Assembly (NCBI GenBank): GCA_947306755.1
Contig: CAMZHI010000001.1
Span: 20,089 to 84,088 of the forward strand
Direction: 5' to 3'
Length of the DNA: 64,000 bases
Origin: an uncultured Clostridia bacterium
GTDB taxonomy: Bacteria > Bacillota > Clostridia > TANB77 > CAG-508
Shown: in pieces, positions 758 to 62,731 of the stretch
How positions within the stretch are numbered: position 1 is the stretch's first letter
Layout: each line of letters starts with the position of its first letter
Notes under the pieces: generated by a model
What the model was told of the DNA's origin: nothing
Database searches by the model: none
The model's input: only the letters and a program-made list of their open reading frames with translations
Program-made: the position numbers and the translations under genes

Positions 758-837
758 GTAAGAAGTAGAAAGTCGGAAGTTAGATATAGAATATCACAAT
801 TCTTACTTCCAACCTCTTACCTCTTACCTCATACCTC
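758..837. repeat. Dispersed intergenic imperfect palindrome, family A copy 1 (purine-rich arm GTAAGAAGTAGAAAGTCGGAAGT, then pyrimidine-rich arm CTTACTTCCAACCTCTTACCTC)
   Basis: The arms read directly as GA/GT-rich followed by CT-rich and can pair with G-U wobble. The same architecture recurs 11 times in the window. Confidence 0.55.
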
Positions 838-872
838 ATGTATTTATACATTAATTACTTACTAATAGCAAA

Positions 873-1592
873 CTAATTATAAAAATAATTTATTATTCCA
901 TTATAAATTCCCCAAGCAAGTTTATTTTGATATTCATCATTTAATAATAGAGTTTCTTCATTAGGATTTGACAAAAATCCACATTCTACAATTGTAGTTG
1001 GAATCTCAACATGTTTTATAATATAAATGTTATCTATACTTTTTGCTACTCTATTATTAGGCTTATCTATTGTTTCATTTAAACTATTCTGTATTTGTTT
1101 TGCTAGATTTGCTCCTTGTTCACTACCTTCTTTATAAAAAGTTTGCCATCCATCATATTTTGATTGTGGTATTTTATTTAAATGTATAGAAACAAATATA
1201 TCAGCAGATGATTCGTTTCCTATTTTTACTCTATTATGAATATCAGATATTTTTTTCTGTCTTAATGTTTTACAATCAATATCATATATTGCATTTTCAT
1301 CTGAACGAGTAAGTATTACTGTTGTTCCGCTTTGCTCAAGTAAGTTTTGAATTTTTAATGCAATTTTTAAATTCGTTTCTGCCTCTGTTGTTCCTCTTGA
1401 ACTTTCTGCTCCTTCATCTGGAATACCATGACCTGCATCAATGATAATTACTTTATTTGAAATTGGAAGACTCACTGTAGCAATGTAATTGTTTTGACCC
1501 TTTAAACTATCTGTTGAAAAAACAAAAACAAAAATAGCAATAAAAACGCTTGTAATAACAAAAGTTAATCTTTTTTTATTTAATATAATCAT
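873..1592 (-). CDS. cwlD: N-acetylmuramoyl-L-alanine amidase, germination-specific CwlD-like (Amidase_3)
   Basis: Signal/TM N-terminus, then IIDAGHGIPDEGAES...VSIHLN typical of Amidase_3/CwlD. Sits in a sporulation-gene context. Confidence 0.8.
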   Translation of the reverse strand: MIILNKKRLTFVITSVFIAIFVFVFSTDSLKGQNNYIATVSLPISNKVIIIDAGHGIPDEGAESSRGTTEAETNLKIALKIQNLLEQSGTTVILTRSDENAIYDIDCKTLRQKKISDIHNRVKIGNESSADIFVSIHLNKIPQSKYDGWQTFYKEGSEQGANLAKQIQNSLNETIDKPNNRVAKSIDNIYIIKHVEIPTTIVECGFLSNPNEETLLLNDEYQNKLAWGIYNGIINYFYN

Positions 1593-1680
1593 ACCTGACT
1601 CCTAATTTTATTAATTTCTAAATAATTATATTAATTAAATCATTTATTATTACAATTATAGAATTATTTAAAATTTTAAG

Positions 1681-1750
1681 TTGGATGTTGGGGGTCGGAT
1701 GTTGAAAGTGGGAAATAAGATATTAGAAGTTAAAAGTGCGAAGTGTAAAG
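1681..1750. repeat. Family A repeat, half-copy (GT/GA-rich arm only: TTGGATGTTGGGGGTCGGATGTTGAAAGTGGG...)
   Basis: Same GGATGT/GGAAGT word composition as the other copies. No clear pyrimidine arm is present. Confidence 0.35.
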
Positions 1751-1785
1751 TTTTAATACTAACTTTTATATAAAATCTGAAGATA

Positions 1786-1822
1786 AAAAAAGACTCTTGC
1801 AGATAGCTGTAAAAGTCTTTTA
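1786..1822 (-). terminator. Rho-independent terminator downstream of hup
   Basis: Hairpin AAAAGACT...AGTCTTTT followed by a T-run on the minus strand, immediately 3' of hup. Confidence 0.45.
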
Positions 1823-1845
1823 TATATTAATATTAATAATTTAAA

Positions 1846-2130
1846 TTAATTTTTTTTGTTGTTAACTGTATTTTTTAATGCTTTACCAGCTTTGAATACA
1901 GGAGCTTTTGATGCAGGTATTTTGATTTCTTGTTTTGTTTGTGGATTTCTTCCTTTTCTAGCAGCTCTTTTTCTTACTTCGAAAGATCCAAATCCAACTA
2001 ATTGAACTTTATCTCCTTTTTTTAATGCTTCTGTTACTACTTGAGTAAATGCATTAACAACTGCTTCAGAAACTTTTTTTGTGCATTCTGTTTTTGCAGC
2101 TATTGCTGCTACTAATTCAGCTTTGTTCAT
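1846..2130 (-). CDS. hup: DNA-binding protein HU
   Basis: [15 protein letters not shown]...[20 protein letters not shown] is the canonical HU/IHF fold sequence. Confidence 0.92.
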
Positions 2131-2320
2131 TATAATTACCTCCTAAAAAATTGTATGTAGCTACTTAAAAATGCAGTATTAAAGCATTTCGTATCTACTT
2201 TACTTTATTTATTCGCCATACTTCGATAAATTCCCTCATTTTTTTTATATTTTTTTTATTTTTTTCTTATTTCAAGCCTATTTCAAAGGTCTGCATGTTT
2301 TAGTTGTTTTTTGTTTTTCT

Positions 2321-60557: not shown

Positions 60558-60643
60558 AATTCATCACCTACTTTCTCCTTTAGCTATAATCCAACTACCA
60601 TTTGTAGACAAATTTTTGTATATTTCTAATGCCTCTAATATTA

Positions 60644-60672
60644 ATTGTACCCTAATTTGAAAATTTTGTCAA
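60644..60672 (-). promoter_or_regulatory. Putative sigma-A promoter driving the pilin-like genes
   Basis: On the minus strand: TTGACA (60672-60667), 17-bp spacer, TACAAT (60649-60644). Confidence 0.35.
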
Positions 60673-61027
60673 TACTTTGCAGTTTAAGTTTTTTTCTTTT
60701 TGAGAAATTGTTACAATTTACAGCTAAATTATTATTGTAGAGTAGCAACGTTTCATTGTATATTTTTTCGTGCTTTAGCCTAAGAAAAAACATATACAAT
60801 GCACAGCAAAGTTGCGACTTTAATATAGCTATGAATAGTAACGATAAATGATATTACATATAAAGGCCAAATAATAAGTATTAATTTGTTTTTCACTACT
60901 TCAGGTTGTCCATAATTTACCAACTATATTTTAGTATTAAGAATATTTGACTAAATTTAAAAAAATCTATAGCACATTAGATCAAACCTTTTTTTCTTTT
61001 TCTAATGTATTATAGATTTTATAATTT

Positions 61028-61117
61028 TGGCGTAGGTGAGAGGGTTCGAACCTCCGCGCCGATGACTCGACCTAGCAGTTTAGCAAACTGCCCCCTTCAC
61101 CACTTGGGTACACCTAC
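61028..61117 (-). tRNA. tRNA-Ser (anticodon GCU)
   Basis: 90 nt with a long variable arm. Acceptor GTAGGTG/CACCTAC, anticodon loop TTGCTAA, T-loop GGTTCGAACC, CCA encoded. Confidence 0.85.
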
Positions 61118-61176
61118 ATTTTTTATAAAAAATACGTAGAATATTGTTTGTGGCAATTTTTCTACGTTTTTTGTTT

Positions 61177-61267
61177 TGGCGGAGAGGGTGGGATTCGAAC
61201 CCACGGTACGCTCACACGCACGCCAATTTTCAAGACTGGTGCCATAAACCAACTCGACCACCTCTCC
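61177..61267 (-). tRNA. tRNA-Ser (anticodon UGA)
   Basis: 91 nt with a long variable arm. Acceptor GGAGAGG/CCTCTCC, anticodon loop CTTGAAA, T-loop GGTTCGAATCC, CCA encoded. Confidence 0.85.
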
Positions 61268-61542
61268 AAGTATTGTGATTTTCATCAGCAACATTAGATA
61301 TCTTAACATATTAAGCAATACTTTGTCAATAACTTTTTATGAATTTTTAAAAAAATTGTTAATAGTTAATGGTTTAAACAAAAAAATAGTGATATATATC
61401 ATTACATTTAAATCACTATCTTGTAACAAAAGTTTTTAAATATAATAAAATATATGCAATTATAATAATAGCTTAAGCAAACAAACTGAGTAACATTGAG
61501 AAAACCCCCGTAAGTCGCATTACGTGGGTCTTATGATTTTAA

Positions 61543-62391
61543 TTAATTTTTTATTAAACTTAATATTCTCTCTAAATCATCATTATTTGTATAATTAATT
61601 ATAATTTTTCCACTTCTTTTTCCTGCATCTACTTTAACTTTTGTACCAAAAAATCCTTGGAAAGTATCTTCTATATCTTTATATACATATTCATATTTTC
61701 TTGCTACTTTTGAATTTTTCTTTTTATGTTGTGCTTTTTTTTCTGCCATACGAACAGTGTCTCCACTTTCGACTATTCTTAGAGCTGTTTTAACTTGTTC
61801 TTCTGGATCTTGTATAGCAAGTAATGCTTTACAATGACCTTCGGTTAGTTTTCCTTGTTTTGCCAAATCTAATACTTCTGGACATAGATTCAAAATTCTA
61901 ACAGAATTTGCAATTGCACTTCTACTTTTACCAAGTTGTTTTGCAATTTCTTCTTGTGTTAAATTATACTCATCCATTAATGCCCTAATACCATATGCTT
62001 TTTCAACTGCATTTAAATTTTCTCTTTGAATATTTTCTATTAAAGAAATTTGTTTATTTGTTTTATCATCATCATCTCTAATAATTGCTGGTATTTCCTT
62101 TAATCCTGCTTTTTTAGCAGCTCTCCATCTTCTTTCTCCTGCAATAATGGAATAATATCCGTCTTTTTTAGTAACAACAATTGGCTGTATAACTCCATAC
62201 ATTTTAATTGACTCTGAAAGTTCTGAAATAGCTTCTTCATCAAATTTCTTTCTTGCTTGTTTTCTATTAGGTTCTATATCTGTAATTTTTAAATTTTTTA
62301 AAACATCATTTTCTTGTTGTTTTTCTTCTTCAGCTATTGGCATTGAAAACAATGCATCTAGGCCTTTTCCTAGTCCTGTCATTTTAGCCAT
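61543..62391 (-). CDS. spo0J: Chromosome partitioning protein ParB/Spo0J
   Basis: ParB box GERRWRAAKKAGL plus an HTH. Lies next to parA/soj. Confidence 0.9.
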   Translation of the reverse strand: MAKMTGLGKGLDALFSMPIAEEEKQQENDVLKNLKITDIEPNRKQARKKFDEEAISELSESIKMYGVIQPIVVTKKDGYYSIIAGERRWRAAKKAGLKEIPAIIRDDDDKTNKQISLIENIQRENLNAVEKAYGIRALMDEYNLTQEEIAKQLGKSRSAIANSVRILNLCPEVLDLAKQGKLTEGHCKALLAIQDPEEQVKTALRIVESGDTVRMAEKKAQHKKKNSKVARKYEYVYKDIEDTFQGFFGTKVKVDAGKRSGKIIINYTNNDDLERILSLIKN

Positions 62392-62656
62392 CTTTTCTCC
62401 TCCTCTAAAGAATTGTGAAAAACTTCGTCTTGCGTTGTTAAAATTGTTTTAAAACGCGGTCAGCTGTTGCATACTGACGCTGTAGCTCACTAGCGTTCGA
62501 ACAGCCTCAGCAACGTACACCAAGTACGCTCCCTTGCCTTTTCAAACAATTTTGCCTAGCAATACTCGTTTTTGACAATTCTGTTTTAACTATTTTACAA
62601 AAATTTTTTATCATTCTTTCTATAAGTCTATCCGTACTTTTAAAATATTATTGTTT

Positions 62657-62731
62657 GAGGCCAGAGGTCGGTCTTCCTACTTTCTACTTTCTACTTTTTA
62701 CCTCCTACCTCTAACTTCAACCTTCAACTTC
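62657..62731. repeat. Family A dispersed imperfect palindrome (GAGGCCAGAGGTCGG ... CTACTTTCTACTTTCTACTTTTTACCTCCTACCTCTAACTTCAACCTTCAACTTC)
   Basis: Overlaps the soj stop codon. Confidence 0.5.

Follow-up and report, generated by a model that had tools for sequence, protein, structure and literature searches.

The DNA analysed here, which we call the window, is a stretch of 64,000 nucleotides (contig CAMZHI010000001.1 of assembly GCA_947306755.1, positions 20,089 to 84,088 of the forward strand) from an uncultured lineage of low-GC, spore-forming Clostridia, contigs of which are found in gut and rumen metagenomes. Its genes include parA/parB, spoIIR, murA, rplM/rpsI, hup, addB, an insertion sequence (IS) and a type IV secretion block, and dispersed among them is a family of short intergenic repeats, the subject of this report. 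An earlier note on this DNA had described eleven copies, each a purine-rich arm followed by a pyrimidine-rich arm or half of such a pair. Reading the sequence directly, we recovered all eleven, with boundaries shifted by a few bases at most, and a twelfth, small member at 21305-21336 that had been overlooked. The elements are 28 to 107 nt long, and their description as a dense, dispersed family of GC-richer islands holds: there is about one copy per 5-6 kb, and the elements have 42.4% GC compared with 27.4% for the window.

What that description had not included is the periodicity of the arms. The arms consist of a degenerate 7-nt unit repeated in tandem, GADGTNN in the left arm and its complement NNACHTC in the right. 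Tandem Repeats Finder reported a period of 7, 14 or 21 at most loci and perfect adjacent duplicate units within arrays; TTCTCAC was repeated 2.7 times at 100% and CTTTCTA four times at 90%, most arrays reaching 68-85%. A search for phased runs (cores G[AG][AGT]GT or AC[ACT][CT]C at exact 7-nt spacing, at least three units) returned four purine and eight pyrimidine runs, 12 in all, compared with none in 100 first-order Markov simulations. The pattern ACHYCNNACHYCNNACHYC (three units, at most one mismatch) gave 42 matches where 0.13 were expected, all of them inside the eleven loci. We parsed 92 units, with GAGGT (30), GAAGT (19), GATGT (11) and AAAGT (7) as the commonest cores; only G1, A2, G4 and T5 are conserved, four positions of seven, and the last two are free. 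The arrays are short (2-12 units) and imperfect. GGG is sporadic in them and GADGTNN holds no run of three G, so that the G-tracts of at least three per unit that a G-quadruplex (G4) calls for are lacking. The 7-nt repeat, and not the full-length element, is the unit of structure and change in this family.

The twelve loci, eleven of which we number c1 to c11, are listed below by their coordinates in the window; a strand is assigned to the element itself at 21305-21336 only.

c1, 755-839: purine array at 755-789 (GAAGTAA GAAGTAG AAAGTCG GAAGTTA), a spacer and a pyrimidine array at 798-839; 33 nt past the stop of the amidase gene (873-1592, minus strand), with addB downstream; RNA fold of -40.2 kcal/mol on the minus (sense) strand.
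c2, 1677-1751: a lone array of about 10 degenerate units with no partner arm, purine-rich on the plus strand and pyrimidine-rich on the sense (minus) strand; the hup terminator (1788-1822) lies about 40 nt upstream of it and the amidase gene downstream; it does not fold.
21305-21336, minus strand: reads GAAGTAAGAAATGAGAGATCACTTCTTACTTTTTTT on that strand, two units per arm and then T7; 5 nt past the stop of a UDPGP-family gene (21342-22583, minus strand), in canonical terminator form.
c3, 22723-22807: purine array at 22723-22750 and pyrimidine array at 22766-22807, adjoining the stop of the open reading frame (ORF) 22808-23266 (minus strand).
c4, 23389-23472: a full element located where ORF 22808-23266 (minus strand) and spoIIR diverge, ending 18 nt ahead of the spoIIR start codon; RNA fold of -33.5 kcal/mol on the plus strand.
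c5, 24167-24218: GAGGTGT GATGTGT GAGGTGA, then TCACTTC TCACTTC TCCCCTC; 37 nt past the spoIIR stop and upstream of the murA promoter.
c6, 26390-26445: a short element with right arm CTACCTCTGACCTCATACATC, 15 nt past the stop of a metallo-beta-lactamase-fold gene (25583-26374).
c7, 27494-27600: hairpin GTAGGAGGTAGGA-T7-CCAACCTCCTAC, then a long pyrimidine array; between convergent genes, overlapping the stop of 27597-28178 (minus strand) by 4 nt.
c8, 29248-29275: lone pyrimidine array on the plus strand (ACCTCCGACCTCATACCTC), purine-rich on the sense strand of the gene 28479-29219 and about 30 nt upstream of its start codon.
c9, 36342-36419: a short pyrimidine arm preceded by seven purine units, the first of which overlap the TGA stop of the 1435-aa CoA-enzyme-activase gene (32043-36350); RNA fold of -25.0 kcal/mol on the plus strand.
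c10, 44680-44760: three purine units and six pyrimidine ones, at whose core is a perfect 10-bp hairpin; 42 nt past the stop of 44803-46152 (minus strand), a T6 run following on the sense strand; RNA fold of -33.8 kcal/mol on the minus strand.
c11, 62655-62732: two purine and about eight pyrimidine units on the plus strand; on the sense (minus) strand the long purine array starts inside the last codons of parA/soj (62717-63553).

The purine arm lies 5′ of the pyrimidine arm in 9/9 full copies, as had been stated, and the two half-copies are what they were said to be, c2 purine-only and c8 pyrimidine-only. When the nine full copies were aligned with MAFFT, the mean column identity was 42% with six invariant columns, and the resulting "consensus" was simply the unit repeated, as the copies have no common register. 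A consensus for whole elements, on which the earlier note had made the reality of the family depend, does not therefore exist; the family is real at the level of its unit and its architecture. Among the covariance models of Rfam, only tRNAs reached gathering score in the window and 14 related loci, and the best sub-threshold matches had E above 1, with nothing meaningful up to E 5. A literature search for the literal Clostridial repeat sequences matched no paper in the library searched.

The twelve loci lie between genes or, at most, extend into the last 1-5 codons of one, and the proximity to stop codons that had been noticed is evident. Four copies abut or overlap stops (c3 by 0 nt, c7 by 4 nt, c9 by 9 nt and c11 by 16 nt), and nine of the ten paired elements, 21305-21336 included, overlap an upstream stop codon or lie at most 54 nt from it. 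Considering the tandem gene contexts of all loci, 17 of 20 elements were nearer to the upstream stop than to the downstream start. c7 is the sole hairpin located between convergent genes. At the end of parA (…GAAGTTGAAGGTTGA; window 62717-62740) and of the 1435-aa gene (…GTTGAAGTATGA; window 36338-36350), the last codons already have the form of heptamer units, and the C-terminus of ORF 22808-23266, beside c3, differs between the window and its relative L003. Such 3′-terminal coding sequences may have seeded arrays, or arrays may have overwritten the original C-termini. c10 lies exactly at the edge of a 16-kb block on the minus strand (44803-60557), inside which there are no heptamer elements. 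This block, which resembles a conjugative type IV secretion module of the kind found in integrative and conjugative elements, codes for PrgI, three TrbC/VirB2-like pilins, an ATPase similar to TraG/VirB4 and a protein of 1643 aa carrying lysozyme and peptidase domains.

The paired elements fold as RNA at -14 to -40 kcal/mol, with z-scores down to -8 against shuffled sequences, while single-stranded DNA folding is much weaker (-9 to -14 kcal/mol). Hairpins form on both strands, always with the purine arm on the 5′ side, in agreement with the earlier reading. That reading had also called each copy a long imperfect palindrome, which is true loosely: the arms are often unequal in length (c7, c9, c11), and their complementarity does not exceed that of arrays rebuilt from shuffled units. 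Likewise, the statement that G-U pairing operates in RNA only stands in so far as the RNA hairpins are far stronger than the DNA ones, but where one strand has a G-U pair the opposite strand has an A-C mismatch. Rebuilding one arm after its own cores and variable dinucleotides had been shuffled barely altered the folding energy (z from -2.3 to +0.9), and this shuffling of units within one arm left no evidence of exact inverted copying or of covariation between arms. The complementarity thus belongs to the unit vocabulary and not to the individual element, so that every GADGTNN array pairs, in several registers, with every NNACHTC array.

We compared the elements with loci and contigs from genome, viral and metagenome collections, which are labelled L followed by a number. 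Contigs in ENA from two samples are 99.7-100% identical to the window, and the closest species-level genomes are the metagenome-assembled genomes (MAGs) RUG13298 and UBA9784, at a SpoIIR identity of 77%. A SpoIIR scan of the genome collection gave 80 syntenic loci. Phased arrays at these SpoIIR-syntenic loci were restricted to the three closest relatives, L003, L004 and L005, and none was found in about 272 kb from 21 further relatives (L006-L026, 24-29% GC) or in the Lachnospiraceae loci. The family does extend outside the window, into close relatives and metagenome contigs; its absence elsewhere had been named as grounds for dismissing it.

Between close relatives, arrays have changed by gaining or losing whole units and by exchanging one unit subtype for another. 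At c1 the 98%-identical strain L469 is exactly 14 nt, or two units, shorter in one arm only, and at c4 (site B) the window and L004 differ by one 7-nt indel. Subtypes have turned over at the c2, c4, c5 and c7 sites (window, L003-L005 and L470-L474), the flanks of which are 80-94% identical. The c2 site holds a pyrimidine-only (sense) array of different units in L469, L470 and L471-L474; the c4 orthologues in L003, L004 and L005 are built of different units, L005 keeping mainly the pyrimidine arm; and the c5 site in L003 and L004 carries unrelated units and lengths, followed by T6-7. At the c7 site a hairpin made of different heptamer words is kept in L003, L004 and L005, with stems GTAGGAGGTAGGA / TCCAACCTCCTAC in the window, GAGGTTGGAA / TTCCAACCTC in L003 and GGAAGTATGAAGT / ACTTCCTACTTCC followed by a T-run in L005. 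Arrays, paired or single, persist at the same intergenic sites: c4 and c7 are present in all four genomes (window and L003-L005), 21305-21336 is conserved in L003 and L004, and c8 in L003 and L222.

Presence of the elements also varies. c1 is missing from L470, a species 82-86% identical; the site orthologous to c3 is empty in L003, L004 and L005; and c6 is missing in L003 and degenerate in L004. c5 is missing from L005 and from 12/12 inspected outgroups, where the spoIIR stop almost directly meets the conserved murA promoter. In L244 the parA-parB gap is 14 nt, without the 300-bp insert that holds c11 in the window, and a short sense-strand purine array remains at the parA end. Within the species, a strain-level difference was seen at c1 only; c3-c6 and c10 showed no polymorphism, L001, L002, L467 and L468 being identical across the elements. 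Neither a target-site duplication nor a clean insertion boundary was found at sites of gain or loss, where flanks were replaced or too diverged, and the filled and empty states of sites A, C (= c5) and D showed no direct repeat at the junctions.

Other folded segments lie near these sites. Between parB and c11, positions 62405-62566 form a GC-rich, strongly folding segment of about 160 nt (-28 kcal/mol for 62472-551) that has no Rfam match and is missing from the orthologous spacer of L244; 63 nt of it recur, with 90% identity, in L252 (4385-4495), an unrelated contig of low GC. The segment has the look of a small structured RNA or of a dispersed element of another kind. Upstream of parA, an isolated GC-rich stem-loop at 63719-63798 (AAAACGAGGG...CTCGTTTT, -25 kcal/mol) stands in AT-rich intergenic DNA and is unrelated to the heptamer family. 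The phosphoglucomutase-UDPGP gap of L005 (about 2400-2650) holds an inverted repeat of about 250-300 bp that folds at -115 to -125 kcal/mol, and the window has nothing comparable at the corresponding site.

The same architecture was found in other genomes. Figures from the pattern scans of viral and metagenome collections cover the matches listed only and are thus lower bounds. Among these matches are contigs of 25-70% GC with a purine-rich heptamer array, a spacer and a complementary array, and adjacent arrays ran from purine to pyrimidine 10:0 in viral and 21:0 in metagenome contigs; control cores were purine-first 9:0. A motif-agnostic detector, which looks for inverted pairs of any period-7 array, reported 65 purine-first pairs, one pyrimidine-first pair and 29 without strand skew in sampled public contigs, made of dozens of unrelated units in unrelated taxa. 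This near-absolute order across unrelated taxa is the most interesting by-product of the analysis. In a low-GC metagenome subfamily, a consensus of about 45 nt, with left arm GTAAGAGGTAGGAAGT paired with right arm CCGACCTCATACCTC and the same mismatches, recurs at no fewer than five unrelated loci. A consensus resembling that of REP (repetitive extragenic palindromic) sequences is not common to the window copies as a whole; c6, c7, c8 and low-GC metagenome loci share 19-45 nt. In addition, nine metagenome contigs of 46-50% GC (L212, L220, L228, L267, L268, L273, L290, L292 and L322) contain a conserved repeat of about 130 nt, several per contig (three copies in Ga0228535_1001415), which embeds a heptamer pair (...GGGGACCTGAGGCTAGAGGTAAGAGGCGGGAGGTGTGAAGAGCGTGAAGATCTTGATCTTCTTACCTCTGACCTCATACCTCTTACCTCTGTTTAGAGAC...). 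In that organism the heptamer arrays seem to belong to a larger dispersed element, one that has a true consensus.

Shared stretches of this kind bear on a suggestion of the earlier note, that the family is a small non-autonomous mobile element. In its developed form, a MITE (miniature inverted-repeat transposable element) or REP-like sequence would be copied by a trans-acting transposase of the HUH/RAYT type (RAYT, REP-associated tyrosine transposase) and then decay by slippage. The presence/absence differences at the orthologous c1, c3, c5, c6 and c11 sites agree with such copying, as do the 19-21-nt end CTACCTCYGACCTCAYACMTC common to c6, c7 and c8 and the 45-nt consensus with its shared imperfections, and the missing target-site duplication is compatible with IS200/IS605-type mechanisms, which do not require one. 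Still, the window copies have no full-length consensus and a nearly fourfold range of lengths, no insertion boundary was clean, differences between related strains consist of whole 7-nt units in one arm only, orthologous elements carry unrelated unit subtypes, and the same architecture is built from many unrelated units in unrelated taxa. A Pfam scan of 45 window ORFs found no Y1 HUH/RAYT or other matching transposase, and the only transposase-like gene in the window, the rve integrase at 6023-7021, is not bounded by heptamer arrays. REP sequences and the bacterial interspersed mosaic elements (BIMEs) that they form in Enterobacteria and Pseudomonas do resemble the window family: they occur about once per 6-8 kb as extragenic imperfect palindromes past stops, are transcribed into hairpins able to stabilise upstream mRNA, and lack a target-site duplication. 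REPs, however, have a conserved 20-40-nt consensus and a cognate RAYT, whereas the window copies have 7-nt periodic arms that change by whole units, no whole-element consensus, and no RAYT within 64 kb. We therefore consider a mobile element of this kind decidedly unlikely.

The integrase itself belongs to an IS-like pair (5346-7021, a 159-aa ORF and the rve integrase) that follows rpsI in the window, L480 and L482 and is missing from the 98%-identical strain (L479) and from L481. As its presence varies, and as the DNA past it in L480 runs into a different gene (RNase Y), this IS is polymorphic and probably multi-copy.

The reading that we favour, with about even confidence, is that the elements are convergent arrays of the form (GADGTNN)n - short spacer - (NNACHTC)n, driven by slippage, and a Clostridial counterpart of the short tandemly repeated repetitive (STRR) sequences of cyanobacteria and of the heptamer arrays of Xanthomonas. 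Replication slippage in place would make and remodel such arrays. Expansion of a 7-nt unit within a gene is a frameshift, and arrays would therefore pile up in the least constrained spot, past the stops. Given pairing in several registers, a convergent pair would always yield a long, G-U-containing hairpin in the transcript of either strand. Some of these hairpins may serve as, or have grown from, bidirectional factor-independent terminators or protective stems at 3′ ends; c7, c10, 21305-21336 and the c5-site (site C) orthologues with T-runs are the candidates. The purine-first order would fit arrays that began in the A-rich and T-rich sequence flanking bidirectional terminators, whose A-tract/stem/T-tract polarity it matches. 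Hybrids of r(purine):d(pyrimidine) are strong and those of r(pyrimidine):d(purine) weak, and purine-first would be the only order that places the weak hybrid in the 3′ arm in both directions of transcription.

Close parallels exist. Heptanucleotide repeats are the most abundant long class of simple sequence repeats (SSRs) in many bacteria, with slippage as the proposed origin (Mrazek 2007, as summarised in PMC4679880). The GGGAATC repeats of Xanthomonas (Rehm et al. 2015, PMC4692102) share with the window family a 7-nt unit, an intergenic location and the occurrence of single and paired forms; the pairs, 70-75 per genome, are neighbouring opposite-strand arrays in convergent orientation with the purine/G-rich strand first, and their sites are conserved between related species while length and sequence vary. 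They differ in that the Xanthomonas unit bears a G-tract, G-quadruplexes being the focus of that study, whereas the window unit is the degenerate GADGTNN with none, and in their hosts, a gammaproteobacterium of 65% GC as opposed to spore-forming Clostridia of 27% GC, as well as in the shortness (2-12 units) and imperfection of the window arrays. Cyanobacterial STRRs (Mazel 1990, cited in PMC4692102) and long heptanucleotide SSRs, as far as these secondary accounts describe them, are likewise dispersed intergenic tandem heptamers with lineage-specific units, for which a slippage origin was proposed and whose 7-nt length excludes them from coding sequence, as here. By the same accounts STRRs are mostly single direct arrays of near-perfect units, whereas the window has degenerate units, mostly in head-to-head hairpin pairs.

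The terminator component of this reading can be weighed separately. The earlier note had proposed bidirectional terminators or stabilising hairpins for the whole family. Three elements (c7, c10 and 21305-21336) do look like factor-independent terminators, c10 and 21305-21336 showing on the sense strand an A-tract and a stem that a T6-7 run follows, and canonical A-tract/stem/T-tract bidirectional terminators occur at other gene ends in the window. There is thus a continuum from canonical terminators to long arrays, since 21305-21336, c10 and c7 are intermediates that have the terminator form and are built from heptamer words. Bidirectional intrinsic terminators share the purine/stem-loop/pyrimidine polarity on both strands and the position past stops; they differ from most window copies, which have no T-run and longer, interrupted stems, some being one-armed or in divergent regions. 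A terminator or stabiliser role is likely for a subset of the elements and unproven for the family as a whole.

A stronger version would make the family a dedicated RNA element under selection, a bidirectional terminator and/or a hairpin that protects 3′ ends from exonucleases, with the periodicity as a side effect. In E. coli operons, REP sequences act in this manner, their 3′-end hairpins shielding upstream mRNA from exonucleases. The strength of the window hairpins and their placement 0-54 nt past stop codons are consistent with such a role, as are the position of c7 alone between convergent genes, where orthologues keep the stem and change its sequence, the T6-7 tails of c10 and 21305-21336 on the sense strand, and the T6-7 that follows the c5-site orthologues in L003 and L004. 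Nevertheless, the outgroups have no hairpin at all at the spoIIR-murA site, and the complementarity of the arms is no greater than the shared vocabulary of units gives. Together with several of the results in the next paragraph, this makes a dedicated RNA element unlikely.

A number of results weigh against the slippage reading that we favour, and the first five of them also against a dedicated RNA element. A consensus terminator scan flagged 0 elements and gave only chance matches inside genes. T-tracts were not enriched after the stems, with a mean of 3.9 T in 10 nt, which is the background. Elements are not depleted from divergent, promoter-only intergenic regions, which hold 9 of 36 of them compared with a background of 19.5% (by crude ORF calls), as chance predicts. 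The sense strand gave the more stable RNA in 11 of 23 elements, showing no bias; selection on the sense-strand RNA (G-U versus A-C), which 5/7 window elements (6/7 by hand) had suggested, was rejected on this wider sample (p = 1). c2 and c8 are conserved across species without a hairpin, which speaks against the hairpin being the feature that is maintained. Complete elements stand at sites that are empty in outgroups (c5, c3, c1 and c11), for which slippage alone is insufficient, and the 45-nt subfamily suggests some copying between loci; such copying, by recombination or by some enzyme, is possible. Finally, the argument from polarity draws on general knowledge of hybrids.

A different emphasis takes the 7-nt units as candidate binding sites, either mimics of Shine-Dalgarno (SD) sequences in the purine arm (GAGGT, GGAGGT) and of anti-SD sequences in the pyrimidine arm (ACCTCC) that would act in ribosome retention or mRNA stability, or matches to the 6-7-nt footprint of a single-strand-binding protein, for instance one with a cold-shock domain, by which the hairpin would be opened or closed. 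GAGGT is the commonest core (30 of 92 units), several arrays occur in 5′ leaders, shortly before the start codon (c4, c8 and the loci L258, L261 and L279 from metagenomes), and single arrays are conserved without a partner arm. There is also a precedent in the TAACTGA heptamer arrays of marine Beggiatoaceae, cyanobacteria and Bacteroidetes, for which a role at the RNA level was proposed, with Csp, S1 or CsrA as binders in Beggiatoaceae (PMC4679880). These repeats, like ours, are abundant, intergenic and lineage-restricted, with 2-6 units; but they are almost all direct (one inverted set among 170) and lie directly upstream of start codons in forward orientation (PMC4679880), whereas the window arrays are mostly inverted pairs directly past stop codons. 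Two thirds of the window cores are not SD-like (GAAGT, GATGT, AAAGT), the polarity rule holds for many non-SD-like units as well, and the Pfam scan of the window revealed no candidate gene for a binding protein. We regard this explanation as very improbable. A universal SD/anti-SD mimic was rejected as a general rule, as 5-unit ACCTC arrays were found at 47 viral loci and the same-composition controls CTCCA and CACTC at 49 and 72, which gives the GAGGT/ACCTC core no privilege, and as GAGGT makes up only a third of the window units.

An intrastrand triplex of the BoxC/PIT kind was rejected by inspection, as the segment order is wrong and the T of GADGT breaks the purine strand. The BoxC/PIT repeats of E. 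coli (PMC4666352) are, like the window family, intergenic palindromic repeats with purine/pyrimidine asymmetry and are tied to local genome variability. They differ in being a fixed 37-nt motif of three segments (CCCTCNCCC...GGGNGAGGG...GGGNGAGGG), with the pyrimidine segment first and no heptamer periodicity (PMC4666352).

Some neighbouring genes have features of their own. Three are each split into two overlapping ORFs: murA (24307-25567, 321 + 103 aa), a Peptidase_S11 D-Ala-D-Ala carboxypeptidase (17302-18541, 118 + 315 aa) and a methyltransferase with a TP_methylase domain (27597-28416, 90 + 193 aa). In murA the two ORFs differ in frame, and as the same split is called in two independent ENA assemblies (L001 and L002), it is not a one-off sequencing error. 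Real frameshifts, pseudogenes or recoding are possible explanations for the split genes. An 861-aa ORF without a Pfam match (36627-39212) contains at 37447-37760 a near-perfect 30-bp tandem repeat (10.5 copies, 96% identity), which results in a 10-residue protein repeat.

The order of the arms calls for a mechanistic explanation, having been found at 65:1 in unrelated taxa and with unrelated units. Convergent heptamer pairs might be a general, polarity-locked cis-element of bacteria and phages and not inert microsatellites, a view that we hold to be speculative and quite doubtful. The order would suit a bidirectional transcription stop or insulator that tolerates shifts of register, the strong hybrid coming first and the weak one next, with the hairpin zipping in any 7-nt register, and the 7-nt period might match the footprint of a single-strand-binding protein, such as one with a cold-shock domain, acting as a tuner. 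If this were true, the Clostridial family of the window would be the form that a widespread, unnamed regulatory device takes in one lineage.

As it stands, the family is a Clostridial addition to a known kind of repeat array. Because its unit is unable to form G-quadruplexes, the G4 explanation offered for such arrays in Xanthomonas and Nostoc cannot be general. The arrays can confuse terminator prediction, MITE finders and the assembly of low-GC gut MAGs, and in the genomes that carry them they mark fast-evolving intergenic sites that overlap stops and alter C-termini.

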